Source: Catajapyx aquilonaris (taxonomy: Eukaryota). Taken from it: a stretch of DNA of 34,510 bases. The position numbers and the translations under genes are program-made. Where the stretch lies: the NCBI GenBank assembly GCA_000934665.2, contig KZ539068.1, positions 1 through 34,510 on the forward strand, read 5' to 3'. This document shows positions 319-31,688 of the stretch, one piece after another. The notes under the pieces were generated by a model, which was not told the DNA's origin, did no database searches, and saw nothing but the letters and a program-made list of their open reading frames with translations. Numbering within the stretch: the stretch's first letter is position 1; every line of letters begins with the position of its first letter.

Positions 319-434
319 TGTGTATTATTTTGGCTATAACAGACCTCAGTTATAGGCTTATAGCTACAGCTACATATAGTGGACTAGACTGATTTTCGTG
401 GTCCCTTGAAGTCAGTTACATCCAGAGTTATTAC

Positions 435-467
435 CTGCATCCGAGAGCATCTCCTGGTTGGAACCAG
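435..467 (-). CDS. Microexon type B, (A)GSNQEMLSDA, of the BED-finger gene
   Basis: tttccatttcag|CTGGTTCC...GATGCAG|gtaataa; 33 nt, phase 1-1. Confidence 0.6.
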
Positions 468-592
468 CTGAAATGGAAATATTATATATTAAAAGTTGCA
501 CAGAATTCATTTGAAATGTTCTAGCCCAATGGGTTGGAACATAAATTTTGGTTCTGAGATGTGATCAATGTCTCGTATAATCCTGTTATTAC

Positions 593-625
593 CTGCATCA
601 GAGAGCCTCTCCTTCTCAGAGCCTG
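593..625 (-). CDS. Microexon type A, (A)GSEKERLSDA
   Basis: tttccatttcag|CAGGCTCT...GATGCAG|gtaataa; 33 nt, phase 1-1. Confidence 0.6.
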
Positions 626-749
626 CTGAAATGGAAATATAATATATTAAAAGTTGCACAGAACTCACTTGAATTTTATTGAAACTAGACATAGTGGACT
701 AGACTGATTTTCGTGGTCCCTTGAAGTCAGTTACATCCAGAGTTATTAC

Positions 750-782
750 CTGCATCCGAGAGCCTCTCCTTCTCAGAGCCTG
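750..782 (-). CDS. Microexon, A/B hybrid, (A)GSEKERLSDA
   Basis: Same splice signals. Type A 5' part with a type B 3' end (TCG codon) and a type B downstream intron. Confidence 0.55.
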
Positions 783-801
783 CTGAAATGGAAATATAAT
801 A

Positions 802-1479
802 CAGGGTGATTACAAATGAATAGTATAATTACAAATGCATATAGCTTCGTACCTATCAACCGCACATGAACGTGTTATACACCAAATGAAAGAGGAGGTT
901 TTGAAGTTTATTTCATACCTTATAAATGTTCTATATGACTTCCCTTGGTCAGTCGAGAAACGTCGATCCGATAGTGCAATTCCTCCCATACTCGTGCCAG
1001 CATGTCCGTTGTCACTGACTCAACCGCAGCAACAATGCGATGTTTGAGTTCATCCAGGGTTGTTGGCATCGGTGGCTCGTACACAGCATCCTTAACGTAC
1101 CCCCAAAGGAAGAAGTCGCATGGCGTCAAATCCGGCGGCCTTGGGGGCCAGCAGTAAAGCGACAAGTCTTGCAGGTCACTGCGACCTATCCAATGACGAA
1201 GGAGCACATTGTTCAGAAACTGGCGAACATCTGAATGCCAGTGCACTGTTACTGCGGTTGAGTCAGTGACAACGGACATGCTGGCACGAGTATGGGAGGA
1301 ATTGCACTATCGGATCGACGTTTCTCGAGTGACCAAGGGAAATCATATAGAACATTTATAAGGCATGAAAAAAACTTTAAAACCTCCTCTTTCATTTGGT
1401 GTATAACACGTTCATGTACGGTTGATAGGTACGGAGCTATATGCATTTGTAATTATACTATTCATTTGTAATAACCCTG
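802..1479 (-). mobile_element. Tc1/mariner (rosa/LTIR-like) foldback MITE with 233-bp TIRs and a transposase C-terminal remnant
   Basis: TA|CAGGGTG...ACCCTG|TA; 802-1034 is an inverted copy of 1247-1479. ORF 920-1279 has WPPRPPDLTPCDFFLWGYVK. The empty site (aTAtattaaaag) is visible in sister repeat units. Confidence 0.92.
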
Positions 1480-1586
1480 TATATTAAAAGTTGCACAGAA
1501 CTCACTTGAATTTTATTGAAACTAGACATAGTGGACTAGACTGATTTTCGTGGTCCCTTGAAGTCAGTTACATCCAGAGTTATTAC

Positions 1587-1619
1587 CTGCATCCGAGAGC
1601 ATCTCCTGGTTGGAACCAG
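1587..1619 (-). CDS. Microexon type B, (A)GSNQEMLSDA
   Basis: Identical to 435-467, with AG/GT flanks. Confidence 0.6.
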
Positions 1620-1744
1620 CTGAAATGGAAATATTATATATTAAAAGTTGCACAGAATTCATTTGAAATGTTCTAGCCCAATGGGTTGGAACATAAATTT
1701 TGGTTCTGAGATGTGATCAATGTCTCGTATAATCCTGTTATTAC

Positions 1745-1777
1745 CTGCATCAGAGAGCCTCTCCTTCTCAGAGCCTG
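1745..1777 (-). CDS. Microexon type A, xGSEKERLSDA
   Basis: Identical to 593-625, with AG/GT flanks. Confidence 0.6.
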
Positions 1778-1922
1778 CTGAAATGGAAATATAATATATT
1801 AAAAGTTGCACAGAACTCACTTGAATTTTATTGAAACTAGACATCAAATTGTCAACTGAAAGGTTCTGTTAGACACAGGCAAAAATCTGCAAAATTAAAC
1901 TACTAGCGTGATCTTTAATATA

Positions 1923-2721
1923 CAGGGTGATTCACATAAAACTGACACATTTCGTTCTCAATTAATTTTAACAAGAATGGTGTATTTATTTATTTATTGT
2001 ACCTCAAATGTAGAGTAACTTGGGAGAATACGAAACTCTAGAGTCTAGAGGAAATGTTGAAAATGGCATCCCTCTTGCTCTAAGCACAGCACAACACGTT
2101 GCGTCTTTCCATGTTGCTTGCCGTTCGTTGGAGTGGATTGCTGTTGTCAAGACCAATGATGTCTTGTGTAATGTTTTGCTTCAAATCGTCCAACGTTCGG
2201 GGGCGTGTGACATAAACTCTGGCTTTTAAGAAACCCCATAGAAAGAAGTCCGGGCTTGTCAAATCTGTAGATCTCGGTGGCCACAGATTCTTGGAAATTA
2301 TCCGGCCATCAAAGATGACAAAGAAACATTCAATGAGTTCCATGGATTTGTTTGATGTATGGCATGTGGCACCGTCTTGTTGAAAATATCCTTTACCCAG
2401 CTCTACGTCATCCAGTTGCTCAACAAACTCCATGAAAATGCGTCGGTACTCTTCAGTGTTAACAGTCTGGTTGGAAAAAGTTGGTCCCATTATTCTCTGT
2501 GTGGAGATTGCGCACCAAACCCCGACTTTCACTGGGTGCATTGGTGTTTCATGAATGATGTGTGGATTTTGGACGGCCCAATAGCGTGTGTTCTGTGCGT
2601 TGACAAGGAATCCTAACTGCATAGGATCCCACTTAATTCGAAACTAAAAAGGGGTCATTATGTGCATGTCCATCCAAAGAAATAAAGAAAGAAATGTGTC
2701 AGTTTTATATGAATCACCCTG
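1923..2721 (-). mobile_element. Internally deleted Tc1/mariner element (DD41D spacing as read, rosa/maT-like)
   Basis: ~31-bp TIRs cagggtgattca.ataaaactgacacatttc with TA flanks. ORF 2080-2622 has KVGVWCAIS, FQQDGATCH and WPPRSTDLTSPDFFLWG, with 41 residues between the second and third Asp. Confidence 0.92.
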
Positions 2722-2877
2722 TAAATAAGATAAATGCACTGTATAAATCTAATGAATTTATAATCATTGCCAGCTTCTGACATTTTGACATCCTTTGCTG
2801 TTGTTGTGTCGCCATTATGAGTTGGAAATTTACATGACATTTCAGTGAAGCATCTCATGTTCACCAATATCATTTAC

Positions 2878-2988
2878 TGTTCTTTGCCGTTGTCAATTCA
2901 TCCAAGCAATCAAAATCGGTTTCATCACTACTTGAGGACATGCCATCATTGATAACCTCTTCAATGCTCATGTCACTGGCATGTCCAT
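2878..2988 (-). CDS. Acidic internal exon of the BED-finger gene (DGHASDMSIEEVINDGMSSSSDETDFDCLDELTTAKN)
   Basis: Acceptor cttcattcag|AT completes the phase-1 G from exon 6363-6315 (GAT). Candidate phase-1 donor A|gtaaat at 2877; read-through would stop at 2870-2872. Confidence 0.55.
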
Positions 2989-3122
2989 CTGAATGAAGTG
3001 TAATTTTTATAACACATTACAAAATTTTTATGAAGAATTATACTACAGCAGTTCTGAATTTGTCAATAACAATATTTAAATATTATTGTTGTGTAATTTC
3101 ACTTGGGGGGGTTGCCAGTTAA

Positions 3123-3210
<88 letters not shown>
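3123..3210. repeat. (ATT)n microsatellite, probably the (TAA)n tail of the minus-strand LINE to its right
   Basis: About 29 perfect units abutting the LINE 3' UTR. Confidence 0.95.
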
Positions 3211-3212
<2 letters not shown>

Positions 3213-3860
3213 TTACCCCTTTGCTTTAGGTACAGTACATACCTATTTCTGGGGGGGAGTTGCCCCTATTCGGGTTACAATTTTTTAGTGACACATTATG
3301 AGGACACTGGTCTAGACAACTTACAAGTTACATGCTGATTCACTTAATCTTATTATTATATATATATAATGATTTTATAAAGTCTTTTTTAGTAGAAAGG
3401 GAAGAGGGGAGAAAGACAGAAATAATTGTAATTTTGAAACATAAAAAATAAAGTAATCGACCTCTGGAGTGGACCGGCCCATTGATCAGGAGATCCGGTA
3501 TTTTGATTTCATCTCAATGTCGCAAAAGATCAAATTTTTGTGGAGCGTCAGAAAGAAACAGTGAAGGGAGTAAATGTTCATTTTTGTAAGATCGCCAAAA
3601 ATTTTATGTATTAAATCCGGTGGGACCAATGGAATTTCTGCTAAGTGCTTTCGTCGTGCCCCCAACATGAAGCTACATTCGTAAAGTAAGTGATGTAGGG
3701 AAGTAGGATTTTGAATCGAACATAAGGAACAATAATCGTCGTCATTAAAATTGATCCTACTTGACCTTATTCCAAAACCCTCTGATTTGTTTCTCAGGTT
3801 GATTGCTAGTCTTGTCATTTCAATTGGTAAGTTAAACTGTAGATATGTGTCGCCCTTCAG
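3211..3860 (-). mobile_element. 3' end of a non-LTR retrotransposon (ORF2 C-terminal CCHC motif plus 3' UTR)
   Basis: CSLCSIQNPTSLHHLLYEC, homologous to the C-termini at 5790-6083 and 8303-8830; followed by a (TAA)n tail. Confidence 0.8.
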
Positions 3861-3942
3861 GCGAGCGCTACACATAAACGGAACAATTTGTGGGGATTGA
3901 TTGCTGACAACCACTTAGCAAACAGCCATAAGGCTCAATCAA

Positions 3943-4097
3943 GCGCAAGTACATTTGTAAGTTCCTAGTTGAAAACAGTGTCATTATTTAAGAGTTAATG
4001 TTCTTTGTTATATAAGTGTAAATGTATTTAGAGGAAGTCTTCCCAAAGGGTAACCCAACCCACGGGAACAAATAAATCAATAAATCAATCAATCAAT
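3943..4097 (+). mobile_element. Short retroposed 3' fragment with (AATC)n tail
   Basis: 16-bp direct repeat cataaggctcaatcaa at 3927-3942 and 4098-4113; AATAAA followed by (aatc)n. Confidence 0.75.
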
Positions 4098-4604
4098 CAT
4101 AAGGCTCAATCAAAGTCAAGACGCGGCCCTGTGGTGTAAAATTAGAGTAAACAATGCGGGAGGGCTGTCGTCAGCTATAGGCGCGTGGCCGTATTTGGTC
4201 AAAGAGGAAGTATGATCTGCGTAAACCGAGAGGACCGTTTAGCAATTCTGACACTTTGAGGCCAAGCGTCTGGATAAAAGGGCTCACCCCTGAGTCGAGA
4301 GGAGCAGATCCCGAGGGAGGAGCAGAGAGGGGAAGAAGGCCCCACCTGTCCCACCATTTGCCCAGAAGGAAGGCCCATCAGAAGGAGGAGTCTTCGGGGG
4401 GCAACTCTCCGGCCGTCCCCAACAAGGACCGTCATGGCCGTCACGCTCATCTAACTACTCAGGTCAGAGTTGCTAATCGGTTTATTTAGCTGCAATTCAT
4501 GTTAACTAGTACCTAAGAGGTACACTTGTTTCTTGACTTCTCTGTGTAACCCGAGAGACGTAAAAGAACCTAACTTGTGGCCGGGGTCGTGGTGACCCCT
4601 GACC

Positions 4605-5097
4605 CCAGGTTGACATATGAAGCAGGAACGAGTCCGTTATAGTAGTCCTTGTAGTACGAATATCTTGAGGATTTCTCATATGTAAGGAAATCCAATTGTA
4701 TAGAGTGGTCTATTATGGTTTGTATTAGAGTCCTTGCATTAACACTTTCGGGATCGATAAGCCAGCAATCCACGTCAGCACCCATGTCACAGAATAGTTT
4801 CTTTAAGTTTCCCATCCAGGGAATTTGGCTTGAGAAGGGAGATTTTAAGTAAGATAAGGCTTGGTGTGACGGTAGACTTGGGTCCTGACAGGATATTTTA
4901 GCAATCAGCGCTACCACTTGCTTCGCAATATTTATAAACAGATGGCGTCTGCCCGTTTCGAGCCTCATGAAGTAGGTGGCTGTGTTTCTTGGGAGTGAAA
5001 AAATTTCCTGATAAAAAAAGATTGAACCTTTTCAACCTCCTGCAGATAAGCTAGTGACCAGATCGGAGTGGCGTATAATGCGGCTGAAGCGACTTGC
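4605..5097 (-). mobile_element. LINE ORF2 post-RT fragment, frameshifted
   Basis: ALYATPIWS..EVEKVQ..SLPRNTATYFMRLETG; same family type as the neighbouring LINEs. Confidence 0.8.
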
Positions 5098-6256
5098 CAG
5101 TTAAATTGGACCAAGGATTACACGTACTTGGGTGACCCCTTTACATCATCAGGGAAATTTCTAACAGCAAGTAAGCATTTCAAATCTAAAGCAATTGCAG
5201 CGATTAACAGCATGTGGTCAGTGTTTTTGAGGCTCAAGGTGAGGGACATTTGCACTGCTACTAGGTTTTTTAACGCGCAAATTGTACCTATCCTTTTGTA
5301 TGGTTCCCAAATCTGGGGGCCTTCCCAGACCAAAGTAATAGATCAAGTTCAGAATTATTTTATTAAATTTTTTTTATGTTTGCCGCGGAACACTGCACAC
5401 TATTTTTCACACCTGGAGACGGGAGTTGCTCCCCTCTCTCTTGGCTACTTTAAGCTCCTTTGCAAGTTTGTGATTAAAATTCGAAGGATGCCGGAGGACA
5501 GATTGCCAAAAATTGCTTATCACGCTGCCTTGCGGGATGCTACTGGGCCAAGTCGCTATGCGAACTGGGTGATTTGGGTGCAAGATCTGCTGACACAAGT
5601 GGGAATTACGGATTGGGATTCCTTGGAAATATCTCTTTCTAGCGTGGTTCAAAAGTTTTCCGATCTCTTATTGGCTAAGAGTGAGCAAGCCCTATCTGTT
5701 TCGATGCGGTATGCTCATTATCGAGATCTACGCCCCTCCATCACCCCCGCTTATTATGTGTCTTACCTTTTGCCGATCAAAATCACCCTATGTTAGCGAA
5801 CCTACGTCATCAATCACCGAGTTTGTTTTTGTTGGCCTGTCGACTCCAATTCGACTATGTGGAGGCTTGTACGTGGTGTAACGTTACGGAACCTTTTTCC
5901 CCTTATCATATAATTTATGTCTGCCCTTTCTTTCGTACCCCCAGATATTTGTTCCTTCATAACCTGCCATCTTATCCACCCGACCGCTTTCATTTACTTT
6001 TGGAAGACTTGCCGAAGGATCTGGCCTTTAATCTCAGTAATTTCTTGGATAATGTCATTAGGAGGATCGAATTGTGTGACTAGGAAGTCTTATTAGTGGG
6101 CACTGGTCAGTGAAAGTTATTGTTCTATTTTATTTTATTTTCATTTTTCATGGTATATGTCTGCTCAAAGTTACATTTGTTGTCATTGTGTCCCCCTAAA
6201 AGGGCGCTTGCCCTCAAATGGGGTAATAAAATAATAATAAATAATAAATAATAAAT
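5098..6256 (+). mobile_element. 5'-truncated LINE (RTE-X-like; clade uncertain) with 3' UTR and (AATAATA)n tail
   Basis: YTYLG, PILLYGSQIWG, LPRNTAHYF..LETG, RLPK; CTWC..H..C in a shifted frame; AATAAA-rich tail. Confidence 0.88.
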
Positions 6257-6314
6257 ATTATTGTTGTTTATGGTCCCTAATAAGGTTGTATAACATAAAA
6301 GGTTTCATATTCAC

Positions 6315-6363
6315 CTGTAAGGCTGAGGTATGGATTCTGCTGCCCATCTGCATTCCTCGGTTG
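6315..6363 (-). CDS. Small internal exon of the BED-finger gene (QPRNADGQQNPYLSLT)
   Basis: actatttcag|CAA...ACAG|gtgaat; 49 nt, phase 0-1, compatible with both flanking exons. Confidence 0.55.
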
Positions 6364-7119
6364 CTGAAATAGTAATTTGAAACATTAATATACTGTATAT
6401 TCCATCCTTTAAAGGTGGTATTAAATAATATAAACCCTGATTTACAAATATTGGAAAATATTATTACTTGTGCTTTGGAGGCATCCATCTTGGTGTGAGA
6501 ATCAAAAACCAGCCAACTATATACATGTAGTGTGAAATTGAGATATTTGAGAAAAACCTGTCATTTTGCATTTGTTCGTAGACAATAAATATTGTTTGTT
6601 GCAGTTGCCAGATTTTGATTCCGACACAACATGTTTGCCGCTTTTTTGATGCGAAAAGTCAATGGTGCATGCAATTATTGCACTATTATTTCACGTATTT
6701 CACTACACTGGCTACGGAACATCTCCCGGGCTGTACCAACCTCAGTGAGCATTGCTCACTGAGGTTGGTGCAGGAATTCTTTCCATCAAACTCCTGCTTG
6801 TATCATGTCAAAACATTTGTGCTCAGTCTAATTTTTATACAGGATATTCAAAGATCAGAATCACTTGCAAATATTGTAAATGAAAATCATCATCAGTAAT
6901 TATTTCCACACTCACAAAAACATCATGTTTTGCGGTTTTGGCAGTATTCTAAAAATATGCAGAAAAAGTCCTGCATTTGAGGTAGGCCCTACCATAATTT
7001 TTTAAATGCATGGTGCAATTACAGAATTTAAGTTGCATACTAAACTTCAGGAATTCTGCAGGAAATATTTTTTAGATGCCATCAGTGACAACTTCCCCAA
7101 TGCCACCAATAGGCCTAAC

Positions 7120-7302
7120 CTCCACAAGTAATGCTGGGTGGCGGACGCGGAGGTGGGCTTTCAAGTTTGATATCGTGGTGCGGCAGGCCACGGCCTTCTT
7201 GCAAGTGTCACATGTTGCCACACCTTCCACCTCTGTCTTGGTGAAGTACTTCCACAGTGGGCTTGGCCTGCGCTTTGAAGGTGCTGGTCCGTTGTTGTCC
7301 AT
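7120..7302 (-). CDS. BED zinc-finger domain, first coding exon
   Basis: SPLWKYF..ATCDTCKK..TTISNLKAHLRVRH is a BED C2H2 signature. Strong acceptor ttttgttttcttgaag| before 7313, accATGg start, donor GAG|gttagg. Confidence 0.85.
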
Positions 7303-7535
7303 GGTTGTTGTACCTTCAAGAAAACAAAACAAAAACAAACAAAGAAATCAGACAAAATAATTATGACTTAGAAATTCAGTCTCACAGTGTACAAAATAAA
7401 GAACTTATTTTTCAAGAATACCTCTACTGCAGAAATTTAACACAATAACTGATGACACCTGTCATTTTGCAAGACAACTGTTCCTTTTTCAGCAGATTTT
7501 TCTTAAACAATGTTAACTCCCAGCATAATCATACA

Positions 7536-9202
7536 TAATCTATATGAAGACCTCGGGGGAAGAACGATCAAGGTCCACTTTTTGTCAAAAAAGCGTTAAT
7601 GTACATAGTATTTCAGAAGATAGTTTCACTACCCTAGTTTCGGCCCCCAACACTTTGGAAATTAGATCATTATCGTATGCTGACGACATTATATTGCTTG
7701 CGGAGATCCCGTTGTACTTGCAAAGAAATATTCAAGTCCTAGAACTATACCTCGAAAAAAAACTGCTTAAACATTAACTTAAAAAAGACCAAGGCAATGT
7801 GTTTCAAAAGGGCTGGTAGGCGTCCGGAAACTACCATCTTCTGGGATCACACACCTATCCTATGGGCGAAGTCGTACACATACTTGGGTGTCCCATTCAG
7901 CACGAGCGGTAATTTATCTTCAACCAGCCAATTTTTCAAAGCAAGGGCAACGATTGCCATAAACAGCCTTTGGCCCACACTTATGAACTTGAAATTGCGC
8001 GATATCCAAATGGCGCTTAGGCTGCTTCAGGCACAGGTACTTCTATATGGTGCTCAGATTTGGGGGCCGGCCAGAGCTTCATCGTCGATCAAGTCCAAAA
8101 AAATTTCATAAAGAAATTCCTAAGCCTGCCTAGGAACACAGCAAATTATTTCCTGCACATGGAGACAGGAGTGCCACCCTTGTCGTTAAGGTCGTTTGGG
8201 CAATTAAGGTGATTTATAGTTAGAACTAGAGAACTCCCCGACTCCAGACTGATAAAAATAGCTTTTGCATCGGCAAAACACACTGCTGAATCGTTCCCCA
8301 ATGTGAGCATGTGGGCAGTGCAGGCGCGAGCTTTGCTGGCCCTGGGTGGGGTAGAAGACTTGGACTCGGAGGGTTTAGCCTCAATGGCTTCCCTGGACGC
8401 ATACGCAGACTATCTTAATGCAAGGAGCCTTCAAGCCTTAGAGAAATCCATGAGATATGTATTCTATCGAGAAATCTCAGTCTTCCCGAATGTCGCGACT
8501 TTTCTTGCGTTATCAACACCGATCAAAATCACAAGGTTAGTAGCAAACTTATGGCATTGCTCCCAAAGGGTTCCCATTCAGGGTGGATCCATCATGTTCG
8601 AGGTAGAGTCGAATTGCACGTGGTGCAACAGAGAGGAACCGGACACCCTGTACCACCTTCTATATTTGTGTCCTATCTTTGCTACACCAAGGATCGAGTT
8701 TCTCTACGACATCCCCAAATTCCCCGTGAACAAACTGCATCATTTGTTTGCCGAACTTCAAGCAACCAAATGTTTTCAATTGTACAACTTTTTCAACAAG
8801 GTTGCTAAAATGAGAGATCTCTGCGGTTGAACAAGGCAGCTATTTTTTTTTACTTCAAATATTGGTCCGACCTGTGGAACTTATGTTTGCCGGAGCTCCC
8901 TGTTCTTGCTCCGCAAGGTGTGCTTATATATATTTTGTAAAAACCAGGAGGTGCTGTGTCCCCCCAAAAGGGCCATGCCCTGCTTATGGAGTATGAAATA
9001 AAAATAAAAATAAAAAAAAAAATATGGTAGTTTGGTCGTGGTTGCGGAGTAATGATCATTAGGTCACTATGGAAGGCCCCAAAAGTGGGATTTACAATGT
9101 AATTCTATGGGCCTTCGAAATTTAAAATTGGAATATCTCAGTTTCACGCACCTGAGGTGGACCTTGATCGTTCTTCCCCTGAGGTCTTCATATGGTAGAC
9201 TA
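7536..9202. mobile_element. Non-autonomous DNA transposon (TAG..CTA-type ends, Academ-like) split by a LINE
   Basis: 37-bp inverted repeat atatgaagacctc.ggggaagaacgatcaaggtccac at 7542-7578 and 9157-9193; no clean TSD. Confidence 0.65.
7655..9022 (+). mobile_element. 5'-truncated, frameshifted LINE, relative of 5098-6256
   Basis: RT SYADDIILLA, YTYLGVPF, LLYGAQIWG, CTWC..H..C, then a poly(A)-like tail. Confidence 0.9.
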
Positions 9203-10382: not shown

Positions 10383-10665
10383 GGACAAGAAGTCCTGTTG
10401 TTCCGGCCTAGGGTAGATGGATACAGTTGGGGCTATGTTGTGGGTTGAACCGCGGGTTGAACAATTGAATTTGATAACTTTTGAAATTCCGTCCGAAAGC
10501 CACAAGATCGCACGACATCTCTCGGCCCATTCCTCCATTCTAGAGTTGAACCAAAGATGGCGAATGGCGAGTGACGGAGAAAGAGGACACTAGCTACACG
10601 GACTTCTTTGTGCACATGCTAGCACATTTTGGAAGCGTGGTGGAAACATCACGGGTCATGATGCC
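10383..10665. promoter_or_regulatory. Probable bidirectional promoter / first-exon region
   Basis: CpG-containing unique DNA between divergent genes. YY1/Pho-type AAGATGGCG at 10554-10562; candidate minus-strand donor CC|gtacgt at 10382. Confidence 0.45.
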
Positions 10666-11061
10666 ATGGCGAAGCTGCTGGTGTATGGCGTTGTGCTGTC
10701 GGCCGTGGTGGTGGTGGTGATTTCGGGGCCGATTTCTGATGTTGCCCTGTGCACATCAAATCCTGTCTGCAAGGATGAGCCTAAGCCTCAGTGCGGGATA
10801 TCGACGGACAAATCGCCGTGCGGATCGGCACTCAGGAGGGGATGCAGACAGCTTGTTCGCGGGGAGGATTGCGAGGCTGCCTGTGAACTGCATGATTTTA
10901 GGCATGAAGTGTTGGCCAATGGCACACTCTTGGTCTGGATCCCATATGGATGTGTGCAGGCCCATGTCTATCTCAAATGGAGAAATGATACCAGTAAAGG
11001 ATACAACATCGAGACCACAAAATCGTATCAGAAGTGTCACAATGAGCACATATGCTGTGAG
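10666..11061 (+). CDS. IL-17-receptor-like (SEFIR) protein, exon 1: signal peptide and Cys-rich ectodomain
   Basis: gccATGg start, hydrophobic N-terminus LLVYGVVLSAVVVVVISG, N-glycosylation sequons NGT and NDT, donor GAG|gtgagc phase 0. Confidence 0.85.
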
Positions 11062-11299
11062 GTGAGCATTTGTAGGGTGTGTACCAGGTTGCATTCCTTG
11101 CTACATGTTTTGGTAAATGTGCAGATAAACTGACCAATATATGTAGCAAATCTATGCATTTTACTAGAACAAACCCTTATGTGACACTCACAACACTGTA
11201 TTAGGAGTACCAGGACCATTTTCATGGAGAAAAACCAACTGAAGTGGTACTTGGAAGTTGTTGAGTGTTTGTTGCTCTGAGGCAATCTCTGAATAGCAC

Positions 11300-12540
11300 C
11301 AGGGGCAGATCCGGGGGGGGGGGGGGGGGNNNNNNNNNNNNNNNNNNNNNNNNNNNNGGGGGGGTTCGTCCGCAAGGCCCGAGAGGGCAAAGTAATAAAA
11401 TAATAATAATGAAATTAATGGTGGGATAAAGGTCCCGCGGCGCTTATGGAGGTTGACATGTTAAATGTCATGCCTAATAACTCTGTAATTACTGAACAGA
11501 ATGACATGAAATTTTGACACAACACGACACGACAACAACCCTTGTCACGGCTATGTTGAGCGAAACCTGTTTTAGGGATTCAGTTAATTATGAAAACCAC
11601 AAAACTGAGAGGAATTTGAAGGCATGTGAGGAAATAATGTCCTGTGAAGAATAAGGACCAACTGAATCCCTAAAACAGGTTTCGCTCAACATTGCCGTGA
11701 CAAGGGTTGTTGTGTCGTGTTGTGTCAAAAATTTCATGTCATTCTGTTCAGTAATTACGGAGTTATTAGGCCCGACATTTAACATGTCAACCTCCATAAG
11801 CGCCGGGACCTTTATCCCACCCTTAATAGAATATTTTTTTATATAAGACAGATGAAGTGTGAAAAAACAGGGTTCCACGTTTAAATTCTACTGGGCGCAG
11901 CGTCGCGGAATTTTCTCGCAACTGTAGCCAAGGATTCAGACATCAACCAAGTATGATTAGTTCACTGTAGGTGTAGGAACATGGCAGACAAGACGACAAA
12001 GTGACCCACCAAGCTTGTATATCATGATCATGGTCTACATATGAAAGCCATCTGCGGTTTTTGTGTGTGGCTAGAACACGTGGTTGACAGCGCCAGGGTT
12101 TTTCCCCGCCCGTTGGCACAAACATTTTGCTTGCTTGTACCGGAAAAGTTTACAATTCCAATAATAATCGGGGAAGCCATATAATAATTAAATATGATTT
12201 GCTGCAGAGCAGTGTCTTTTGCGTGACCTGGGAGTCTCGGACCTGGTTCTGGCCAAATCCGTCCACAAACAAAGAATAGGCCTAAATCAGTGGCGTATGC
12301 AGGGGGGCCGAGCCCCCACCCGAAATGTTTGAAATAGCATTAGAAATTACTAATTTGTGAGTTTTTGGAAAAAGTGCTACCAATTTCATCAATACACACC
12401 CATTCAAATCTCCCATATTCACCCAAGCCCGTGTGACCTTAAACCCATTTATTTTTTTCCTGCGGGGGGCTTGCTCCCCGCCCTCTGCTTACAAGCCTGC
12501 TCTCCCCCTCTGCTCTGCTTACCCCCCCNGTCTGCCCCTG
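11300..12540. mobile_element. Composite non-autonomous hAT-like element; contains the assembly gap
   Basis: CAGGGGCAGA..poly-G and poly-C..TCTGCCCCTG ends; perfect 8-bp TSD aatagcac at 11292-11299 and 12541-12548. Confidence 0.75.
11419..11822. mobile_element. TTAA-flanked foldback MITE (Kolobok-like ends)
   Basis: ~165-bp inverted arms (11420-11585 and 11659-11822); TTAA on both sides. Confidence 0.8.
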
Positions 12541-23529: not shown

Positions 23530-24330
23530 CCTTATGGCTTTACAACCCAGACCTCTTTGAATGCCAGACCCAACCCACATACATGCCTGGTCAGGGTCAG
23601 ACCCTGACAACATGTTTCACAATAGAATCAAACTAATGCCGAGTTATTGATTGCTGCACCACTCATTGAGTCCACATGTTACAAAACTCACTTGCCTCAG
23701 GGAGAAAAATTAATTCCTGTTGCAAACTCAAGAGTAAAGAAATAATAACTGGGTACAATTTTGGACTCTTGATGGATCCAAAATATTACGAAATACATTT
23801 TCATTAATTTAGGATACCGGTAGGCTTCTTTTTGTGTTTCCCTTTGGGGAGGGGGAAGGGGAAGGGTCAGCAAAAAAACATGCTGGTATGTTTTTACTGA
23901 CTTGTAAGCAACAAAAGTGCATTCCAAATGCCCTCCATGGGGTGACCTACAAGGGTGTGACAGTTTGGGTTGCATCTGATCAGCAATTCTTTTGTTACTT
24001 GCTCCATAGTCAATAGTTTTTGAGACACGATGGGATAATATTCGTCTTCCGTTAATTTTTTCTTCTATTTTTCCCGGCTAAAAATCTTTCCAAGTTATAC
24101 CATGTCTGCCTGGTGGTGCCTTCTGATCCTATGTATATCTTGTGACTGGGAAAATTCCAGGAACCACAAGAGCGTTTGACTTAGGCTAGATGCACTTTTT
24201 CCCACGCATCCGAGAATTCTGGATGCTTGTAACACACCTTGTGTTGCTTTTTTGTGATGTTACTTGAACTTTGGCAGTTATGTAGTCTGTGTAGTTTGGA
24301 GTTTTGACATGTTTGACACCCTTATTTTAG

Positions 24331-24847
24331 GAAACTACCCACAAACAGAACAACAGCCAGGAAGCACCAACTCTGTGTGGTATTGGATATTGATAGCACT
24401 GGTGCCGCTTGGGTTTGGTGCCATTTGGGTTGGCGCCTACATTAGACGGCGCTTCATCTGTTGGGGTGTTCAGGACCTGAGAGGACCTGAGACCAAGAAG
24501 TGTGTGTCACCAAAGATAGTTGTCCTTCTCTACCAAAGAGATTGTGATGAATTTCATGTTGCAATTGGGCAACTCAAGGCATGCTTGCAGGGATGTAGCC
24601 TTGAAGTGTGTGATTACTTGGAATCCTGTGATAAGCACTTGGATGAACACTTGGTTGGCCATATATCAAGTTTGCTAACCAATGAACACCACCAAGTGAT
24701 TCTGGTGGCATCCAAATTGGCTGCTCTTGCTGCATGGAATGGGAACATTTCATATGTCAAACCTCATAGACATGATCGTCTGTTCTCATATGCATTCAAG
24801 CGCCTGAGTGAGATAGCCCTAGTATATCAGCGAGTTTTTGTGGTCAG
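24331..24847 (+). CDS. IL-17R-like exon 5: TM helix and most of the SEFIR-like domain
   Basis: cttattttag| acceptor phase 1; TM WYWILIALVPLGFGAIWVGAYI then RRR; VVLLYQRDCDEFH, VILVAS, PHRHDRLF, YQRVFVV; AG|gtatgg donor. Confidence 0.88.
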
Positions 24848-24873
24848 GTATGGATGAGAATTTACACGAAATA

Positions 24874-30545: not shown

Positions 30546-31530
30546 TCAAGCTTTAGATTCTAACCTACACACCTTGTCTTTAACAGTCTCCTTAACATTC
30601 CACCTTTGCAAAATCTCCTCATTCCTAATCCTGTCCAACTTAGTAACCCCACAAACAGCCCAGAGATAATGCATCTCTGTAGCCAACACCCTACTCTTAT
30701 GCCTATCTGACCAAACCCACGCTTCACTACCATACATAAGTGAAGGAACAATAATAAGTGAAGGAACAATAACGTGAGAATAGACAGACAACCTGCAGGC
30801 AGAGGATAAGTCCTTATTTCTAGAAAACTTACTTGTGGCACCTATCACTTTCAACCCAGAACTAACTCGCCTGTCAATCTCCCCATCCATTCTACCATTA
30901 CTCTCAAGGACACTACCCAGGTATACAAACTGGTTGACCTGCTCAACCAGTCTTCCTCGTACCTGCAACAGACAAGGAGAAACCTGCCGTCCTCTCTCAA
31001 ATACCAATACCTTAGTCTTATCTACAGTAATCCTCATACCCCTCTTTTCACAAACATTATCTAACTTGCATAGGATCAACTGTAAATCAGCCTCACTCTC
31101 CGCAAGAAGGGCAGAATCATCTGCATACAGCAAGTGACTAACTAACTCATCACCAAACTGCACTCCTACACCTTCAACCATAGCTTCCATTACACATGCA
31201 TCTAACAATAAGTACAAGGAGACATGACACAACCCTGCTTAACCCCAACACATGTTAAACCAGTCAGAGAAACCCCCACTAAGTTCTAACACAAGCTCTA
31301 CTCTCTTCATACAATGACTTCACAGCCTCCACAAACCTTCCCTACTCACTGTGTCATAGGCTTTCTCTAAGTCTACAAAGGCAACCAAAACCTTCTTGTT
31401 TACAGCTAAATACTTTTCTATCACGAGTCTCACACAGAATATCTGATCTGCGCAACTCTTACCCGACATAAACCCACTTTGAATATTCAGTATTCTCTGA
31501 CTTGCGACCCTCTTAACTCTTTCTATCAAG
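30546..31530 (-). mobile_element. RTE (BovB-like) LINE reverse-transcriptase fragment, degenerate
   Basis: QSGF..GKSCADQIF, FVDLEKAYDTV, GVKQGCVMSP, LLYADD, FVYLGS, YGSEAW, VTKLDRIRNEEI; internal stop, deletion and frameshift. Confidence 0.93.
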
Positions 31531-31688
31531 AGATGAAATACGAATATTATTATCATAAACATTGGGCTCATTCACACCAGCTCTTGTTCACAGTTAATTT
31601 ATTATTACAAATTTTTCTGCGTCATGCAGAGACTGGTGAGAGCAAGATAGCTCTGCAGCTGGTCCTCCTTCGGTCCCCTGGTGGTACG

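Follow-up and report, generated by a model that had tools for sequence, protein, structure and literature searches.

A young, low-copy tandem array of microexon-like 33-mers in Catajapyx aquilonaris, probably non-coding

Layout of the tandem array and its 33-nt cores

The stretch of DNA analysed here, referred to below as the window, comprises 34,510 nt of Catajapyx aquilonaris (GenBank assembly GCA_000934665.2, contig KZ539068.1, positions 1 to 34,510, read on the forward strand). Near the start of the window lies a tandem array (374..1844), delimited by self-alignment and by Tandem Repeats Finder, which reported a period of 158. The array spans 1471 nt; when an inserted element and its target duplication are subtracted, 791 nt remain, equal to 5.02 units of ~157.5 nt, and the left and right edges share one unit phase (…acat|agtgg…). 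When the + strand was scanned with the regular expression TTATTAC-N33-CTGAAATGGAAA, exactly five matches were found, each of which reads on the minus strand as tttccatttcag|33 nt|gtaataa. On the minus strand, the 33-mers follow one another as A1 (1745..1777, with the acceptor-like tttccatttcag at 1778-1789 and the donor-like gtaataa at 1738-1744), B1 (1587..1619), A' (750..782), A2 (593..625, identical to A1), and B2 (435..467, identical to B1); the donor-like side of B2 abuts a dispersed-repeat copy at or below position 428. Start-to-start spacings were 158, 157, 837, and 158 nt, the third representing 157 nt plus a 680-nt insertion. Split-codon translation yielded AGSEKERLSDA from the three A-type copies and AGSNQEMLSDA from the two B-type copies. 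Both peptides, as well as five ~158-bp units with 33 nt ahead of gtaataa in the order A-B-A'-A-B, had been proposed in a preliminary description of this DNA, with which our scan and translation agree in all five copies.

The sequences bordering the 33-mers resemble splice signals. On the acceptor-like side, the 14 nt upstream of a YAG contain 10 pyrimidines in the B copies and 11 in the A copies, and a branch-like TTAAT motif is located ~22 nt upstream. The donor-like side reads CAG|GTAATA, and the core length is a multiple of three. By motif match, a short, symmetric, stop-free core between cag| and |gtaataa was present in 5 of 5 copies. Stops are absent from the 33-mer not only in the phase-1 frame named in the preliminary description (hereafter the named frame) but also in minus frame 0 and in every + strand frame.

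Identity comparisons revealed that the higher-order unit of the array is a 316-nt A+B dimer (429..744). Positions 429-692 and 1581-1844 were 100% identical over 264 nt, as were 643-744 and 1480-1581 over 102 nt, and a separate alignment of the dimer copies gave 99% identity over 300 nt. Because the copies are 99-100% identical, the recurrence of the AG/GT pairs reflects inheritance and not conservation, and the five pairs amount to one observation plus the comparison of A with B. Homology between A- and B-type units is confined to an 89-nt module (427..515, and also 585-673), in which the 33-mer is flanked by 8 nt towards the donor and by 48 nt towards the acceptor. The outer ~70 nt of the two spacer types gave no alignment, and homology between these spacers was rejected (P=0.90). 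Also rejected were the left flank (300-373) as a decayed unit (local alignment, P=0.11) and homology of spacer 1 to the right flank (P=0.44).

The type-2 spacer consists of the right end of the array (…gaaactagacat) joined to its left end (agtggactag…); it is the joint of the duplication, and part of it (55 nt) is dispersed repeat. The dispersed-repeat copy, recognised through DNA contigs, occupies 326..428. Its last 55 nt (374-428) are part of the duplicated unit, with further copies at 685-743 and 1522-1580, and positions 386-428 were common to 7-12 other contigs per run, each of which diverged on both sides. With an integer number of units arranged head-to-tail and a joint formed by the right end plus the left end, the locus has the anatomy of a simple tandem duplication. 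The array is a low-copy, very recent duplication of the 316-nt dimer. Growth by tandem duplication, as proposed earlier, is supported by these findings, but the unit of growth was the dimer and not one exon at a time. No second copy of the array was found within the 34.5-kb window.

The central copy, A', is A-like up to base 25, carries a B-like G at base 26, and has a B-type spacer behind it. Judged from this sequence pattern, A' is an A/B recombinant produced by unequal crossover, not a separately mutated copy. As a recombination product, its TCT/TCG change counts as no extra independent substitution.

The array is interrupted by a 678-bp foldback element (802..1479), which is bounded by TA target duplications at 800-801 and 1480-1481. 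Its arms, 240 nt in length, are 96% complementary, and its ends read CAGGGTG…CACCCTG. The element is situated 19 nt upstream (on the minus strand) of the A' acceptor-like site, where it separates the branch-like motif from that acceptor. Contigs of the foldback element had depths of 700-8800, which indicates that it belongs to a high-copy family. Its arms contain an ORF that is apparently left over from a Tc1-like transposase. Over 52 aa, this ORF shares 48% identity with that of a neighbouring Tc1-like element (1923-2721, identified by its Atlas score), and the latter ORF scored 0.94 in Atlas to Tc1-like transposase clusters. On the basis of this Atlas lead, the TA duplication, and a known motif, we take the foldback element to be of the Tc1/mariner type. 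It resembles a Tc1/mariner MITE in its TA duplication, its matching ends, and the transposase-frame remnant in its arms. Unlike typed Tc1/mariner elements, it has an ORF that Pfam and PDB searches did not recognise; for both the foldback and the neighbouring transposase ORFs, there was no Pfam match at E<=10 and no PDB sequence match. Transposon remnants flank the array on both sides, and pieces of non-LTR reverse transcriptase are found further on. The window also contains a SEFIR-like ORF.

Copy number and variant units in DNA contigs

A search of sequencing runs for this DNA listed four DNA contig runs, all from a single sample and with word shares of 0.40-0.54, plus one run of unknown kind (X5) and no run recorded as RNA. 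Copy number was assessed in contigs from four runs; X5 gave no cover on the array and does not enter the evidence. With contig depth taken as a rough proxy and not as a copy number, the exact contig spanning 486-630 had a depth of 33.9 (X1) or 55.2 (X2), compared with 18.6 (2014-2201, X1) and 30.4 (1815-1948, X2) for exact single-locus contigs. The exact unit was thus at about twice the single-locus depth, corresponding to about two copies, as in the window, and it is therefore no high-copy satellite. That the array of five units is not a true satellite had been claimed before, and the claim stands, though variant units and flanking repeat families do exist.

A variant-unit contig that runs from 1758 back to 1613 (146 nt back) had a depth of 94-120, as opposed to ~18-36 for exact single-locus contigs. 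The differences listed for this contig, namely 4 substitutions and two small insertions, were all located in the spacer; none of those listed was in the donor- or acceptor-side parts. The return by 146 nt may mean either a core shortened in frame to 21 nt or 12 letters left unaligned. A second variant joint, 514>1830, had a depth of 151. In addition, a contig in which 1856-1922 was joined to 2734-3000 had a depth of 76-117 and, over 267 nt, carried 20 differing letters and 2 gaps. Its junction of 1922 with 2734 is an empty site for the Tc1-like element and, given that the contig differs from the window, the right flank must also be part of a small family. The locus thus has the appearance of belonging to a low-copy family. 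Mobile or segmentally duplicated elements might make up such a family, but genes of a small family are just as conceivable. Scans of metagenomes gave 0 matches both to a 38-nt acceptor-side pattern and to 25 nt taken from the dispersed repeat.

Divergence and coding potential of the 33-mers

The A and B 33-mers differ at 8 bases, and information about the cores is carried only by this comparison. In the named frame, 4 of the changed codons are synonymous and 3, holding 4 base changes, are non-synonymous; the synonymous changes are at bases 2, 5, 8, and 26 of the 33-mer, all of them third positions. In + strand frame 2, there are 3 synonymous and 3 non-synonymous codons. To the preliminary description, four synonymous differences suggested a frame under selection. 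These differences are real in the named frame, but the TCT/TCG difference seen in A' came from recombination and adds no independent change. When 8 random substitutions were placed on the A sequence in 20,000 rounds, with at least 4 synonymous codons and no stop as the criterion, such a bias arose with a probability of 0.019 when only the named frame was considered, of 0.045 when any minus frame could count, and of 0.10 when all six frames were admitted. The third-position pattern thus holds for the frame that had been singled out and is not significant once all frames are allowed.

The distribution of differences along the module runs against that earlier suggestion. Across the 89 nt, A and B differ at 11 positions (~12% divergence), 8 of which lie in the 33-mer. 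The 33-mer is hence more diverged (8/33, 24%) than its flanks (3/56, 5%; Fisher P=0.016). At synonymous sites of the putative exon, 4 changes were counted in roughly 8 sites, about ten times more than in the flanks (3/56), and the 33-mer therefore does not fit simple purifying selection. Divergence of an exon above that of its flanks is predicted neither by simple purifying selection nor by simple neutral decay. Under either model, gene conversion of a short patch by a more distantly related member of the family would account for the divergence of the 33-mer.

To gauge how often similar patterns arise by chance, both strands of the 34.5-kb window were scanned for a YAG after at least 11 (strict) or at least 10 (relaxed) pyrimidines in 14 nt without AG, followed by G|GTAA, where the core between the two had to measure 15-63 nt, be divisible by three, and have at least one open frame. 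Outside the array, 2 comparable pseudo-exons were found under the strict and 4 under the relaxed criteria; two matches sit in a reverse-transcriptase remnant. Block shuffles gave 0.76 and 1.03 (strict, two series) and 2.6 (relaxed). These values correspond to a chance rate of ~0.4-1.8% per 158-nt unit. A splice-like pair is uncommon by chance, but the pattern was chosen after it had been seen.

Read-through frames on the minus strand were taken from the ORF list. They comprise a 69-aa stop-to-stop frame across A1 with an internal ATG (1659..1868), its 63-aa twin (507-698), and a 50-aa B-type frame (412-564). For the 69-aa frame, 14 word-sharing candidates were retrieved among longer proteins, none at E<=10; among 1.84 billion representatives, 0 relatives were found at E<=0.001; and Pfam returned noise only (E=0.15-0.2). 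A PDB sequence search with three ORFs produced no match. The two protein libraries seem to cover this organism poorly. A clear BED-finger exon (7120-7302, minus strand; Pfam E=9.2e-11) likewise had no relatives in the word-indexed protein library, and for this reason the blank protein searches are weak evidence.

The BED-finger exon lies 5.3 kb upstream of the array, has an ATG in good context and ends in phase 0 at a GAG|gt donor. An acidic 48-aa ORF (2870-3016, minus strand, from the ORF list), for which no protein relatives were found, would end in phase 2 if a donor-like CAG|gtaaat, noticed by eye, were used. Chaining the array to either of them was rejected, as these phases are unfit for phase-1 microexons. 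No start exon, signal peptide, or phase-compatible neighbouring exon was found within the window. Downstream exons, if any, would lie beyond the window start.

Interpretation and comparison with known systems

Taken together, these data are best explained, with a probability of about 0.55, by an array that is a very young, low-copy, non-coding tandem duplication. From the observed anatomy, copy identities, recombinant, insertion, and low copy number, we infer the following order of events. An older local duplication would have produced the 89-nt modules A and B, 158 nt apart, beside a truncated copy of the dispersed repeat. A recent head-to-tail duplication of the 316-nt stretch, including 55 nt of that repeat, would then have produced the second type of spacer; A' presumably arose from an unequal crossover within the 33-mer; and the Tc1/mariner-type foldback element would have been inserted at a TA thereafter. 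The acceptor- and donor-like motifs would have arisen once, by chance or as a relic, and been copied five times, and they are probably not maintained by splicing. Several observations favour this non-coding reading. Within the module, divergence is highest in the 33-mer, the reverse of what is seen in a conserved exon between freely evolving introns; the synonymous bias lost significance when any of six frames was admitted; and a 678-bp insertion so close to the A' acceptor was tolerated. There are also points against it, namely the good acceptor-like site, the CAG|GTAATA, the length divisible by three, and the low chance rate of such pairs, together with the 4 of 7 changed codons that are synonymous (P=0.019), the uneven divergence (P=0.016), and the fact that the differences listed for the variant contig were all in spacer sequence.

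These same points are what a coding interpretation would build on. The 33-mers could belong to a minus-strand gene as real cassette microexons of phase 1-1, coding for an 11-aa repeat that is acidic and probably disordered; recent duplication would have raised their number from two to five, and the repeat could be made longer or shorter by splicing. We consider this unlikely, although no other single alternative is better placed. Acceptor- and donor-like motifs surround a stop-free 33-mer in every copy, at a frequency that chance would give in only ~0.4-1.8% of units; the synonymous bias is nominally present, with P=0.019 if only the named frame counts and P=0.045 if any minus frame may; and the flanks adjoining the 33-mer are better kept than both the 33-mer and the rest of the spacer. 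The upstream BED-finger exon, with its ATG and GT donor, makes minus-strand transcription through the array conceivable. Moreover, the A exon is purine-rich (GAGAAGGAGAGG), and purine-rich tracts act as splicing enhancers. Set against this are the failure of the 69-aa frame to find protein relatives in two very large libraries, the window's lack of a first exon, signal peptide, or phase-1 neighbour, and a synonymous divergence of the exon far above that of the flanks (3/56). The expansions of the array are too recent for selection to have acted on them, one of the spacer types that would serve as introns is a duplication joint made partly of dispersed repeat, and the foldback element has come to lie between the branch-like motif and the acceptor of A'. 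An extension of this model, in which the array is part of a lineage-specific gene or, considering the variant units, a small gene family that would be lengthening its acidic 11-aa repeat by single exons, with exons that would diverge faster than the flanks bearing their splice signals, is in our estimation equally doubtful.

Somewhat less probable still is that the locus is one copy of some larger multi-copy element, whether a non-autonomous transposon or a segmental duplication that was dispersed recently, and that the array is the tandem repeat in its interior or near one of its ends. This proposal overlaps with the preferred explanation, both being non-coding. It would account for variant units in tandem at a contig depth of 94-120 and for the depth of 151 at joint 514>1830, for the right-flank contig (1856-1922/2734-3000) that occurs at a depth of 76-117 without the Tc1-like insertion, and for a left edge placed in a dispersed repeat that is present in 7-12 other contigs per run. 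Nevertheless, no bounding terminal repeats or target duplications were identified, the 34.5-kb window holds no second copy, and the exact unit (486-630) is at only about twice the single-locus depth, itself a rough proxy; a multi-copy gene family, moreover, would look alike.

It is very improbable that the functional unit is a small unspliced ORF of 61 aa, starting from the ATG within 1659-1868 on the minus strand and duplicated at 507-698. In each of the two A-type units the frame does stay open, over 63-69 codons, and holds an ATG, but the two copies are identical duplicates, so that the open frame counts as a single observation, and the neighbouring foldback element contains ORFs of much the same length; there was, furthermore, no relative among 1.84 billion representatives (E<=0.001), among longer proteins, or in Pfam (best E=0.15). 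Least probable of all is an array of structured non-coding RNAs or of tRNA-derived SINEs, for which no supporting point was found: Rfam gave 0 matches over the whole window, 0 tRNA genes were detected in it, and the 316-nt dimer folded with unremarkable energy on either strand (z=+1.24 and -0.27).

Gene structures with tandem series of very small symmetric exons are well documented. According to one source (PMC5825161), ~80% of the coding region of schistosome micro-exon genes (MEGs) lies in symmetric exons of 6-36 bp, and some members, such as MEG-26, carry an internal duplication that gives a repeated pattern of exon lengths and a repeated protein motif. Another (PMC10526429) describes MEG exons of 6-81 bp, introns down to ~100 bp, and retrotransposon sequences at the boundaries of MEG genes. 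At the motif level only, the array resembles schistosome MEGs in its short symmetric cores whose length is a multiple of three. Further parallels are the internal duplication, the short spacers, and the transposon sequences close by. MEGs, however, are defined by transcripts and by secreted proteins with an N-terminal signal peptide, whereas no signal-peptide exon was found in the window, and the 69-aa frame of the array had no protein relatives in two very large libraries. In addition, MEGs consist of a series of different microexons, and the array of near-identical copies of two types. A study cited in PMC10526429 reportedly concerns tandemly repeated 81-base exons.

Exons that encode repeats in a phase-symmetric fashion, such as the titin PEVK exons and the 54-bp exons of collagen, offer a second comparison. 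The array would share with phase-symmetric exons of disordered repeats the 1-1 phase and a charged peptide of low complexity (A, G, S, E, K, D), such as one would expect in disordered modules that can bear the duplication or skipping of exons. Those exons belong to annotated, expressed genes, whereas the putative exons of the array are very recent copies read from DNA. Phase symmetry and disorder promote the modularity of exons (PMC3632108). The array is also similar to a minisatellite or low-copy tandem duplication, with which it has in common an integer number of head-to-tail units, identical dimers, a recombinant, an end-to-end joint, and a transposon that arrived later. It differs from a plain minisatellite in the acceptor/donor-like pair around a 33-nt open segment and in its mild third-position bias.

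If the 33-mers are not spliced, which is the more likely case, the locus serves as a caution, in that a tandem repeat can multiply one chance acceptor/donor pair into a seemingly convincing "exon array" and that a third-position bias drawn from 8 differences would be no evidence of selection. If they are spliced, the array would offer a rare snapshot of a repeat protein growing by exon duplication, in which two exons have become five before any substitutions could accumulate, although one copy is already a recombinant of unequal crossover and one intron already houses a transposon. It would also constitute a natural system in which to study how microexons are defined, and it would represent a MEG-like system of protein variation caught in the act of expanding, possibly outside the flatworms.

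Transposable elements and repeats in and around the array

Within the five-unit array lies a 678-bp foldback element (802-1479), with TA at 800-801 and 1480-1481. Its two 240-nt arms are 96% complementary; within them, at 920-1306 on the minus strand, a Tc1-like transposase frame survives as a remnant. Because contig depth (a rough proxy rather than a copy number) was 700-8800 over this element, compared with about 18-36 in single-locus contigs, its family was judged to be high-copy. At the left edge of the window, a 147-bp tandem repeat (23-299; 1.9 copies, 78% matches) contains the inverted motifs GCCGCCATCTTGG and AAGATGGCGC. Contig depth over this repeat was 426-1751, indicating that it belongs to a high-copy family; past 298, the sequence differs in other copies.

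To the right of the array, an internally deleted Tc1/mariner-type element (1923-2721) is flanked by TA at 1921-1922 and 2722-2723, and has inverted ends of 51 nt. It retains a 187-aa transposase remnant, which received an Atlas score of 0.94 (a lead to Tc1-like transposase clusters) and had no match in Pfam or PDB searches. A related empty site was present in DNA contigs (joint 1922>2734). Non-LTR retrotransposon remnants were located at 5050-6083 (+), 7529-8830 (+) and 30546-31571 (-), the last with RVT_1 matches at 30546-31238 and 31320-31571. Two of the symmetric exon look-alikes outside the array, one from the strict scan (32021-31989) and one from the relaxed scan (31522-31463), lie inside or adjoin such remnants. 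A non-LTR-like frame (3486-3914) is followed, in the minus-strand direction, by a perfect (ATT)29 microsatellite (3123-3210), which may be the 3' tail of the element.

Candidate coding frames

An acidic 48-aa frame containing SDMSIEEVINDGMSSSSDETDFDCLDE (2870-3016, minus strand), with a donor-like CAG|gtaaat close to its end, is part of the right-flank family, whose depth is 4-5 times single-locus; a search for relatives of the frame found none. The minus-strand segment 7120-7302 is probably a first coding exon; it has an ATG in good context, a phase-0 GAG|gt donor and a BED zinc finger (Pfam E=9.2e-11). Zero relatives of this exon were found in a word-indexed protein library. Assembly gaps occur at 11330-11357 (a run of 28 N) and 12529 (a single N).

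On the plus strand, a 199-aa open frame (24258-24857, also 10594-11133) had no match in Pfam and PDB searches; language-model features alone gave a lead, scored 0.86, to SEFIR (IL-17-receptor-type) domains. A frame upstream of it opens, as judged by eye, with a hydrophobic, signal-peptide-like stretch, and the two frames may constitute one receptor-like gene.
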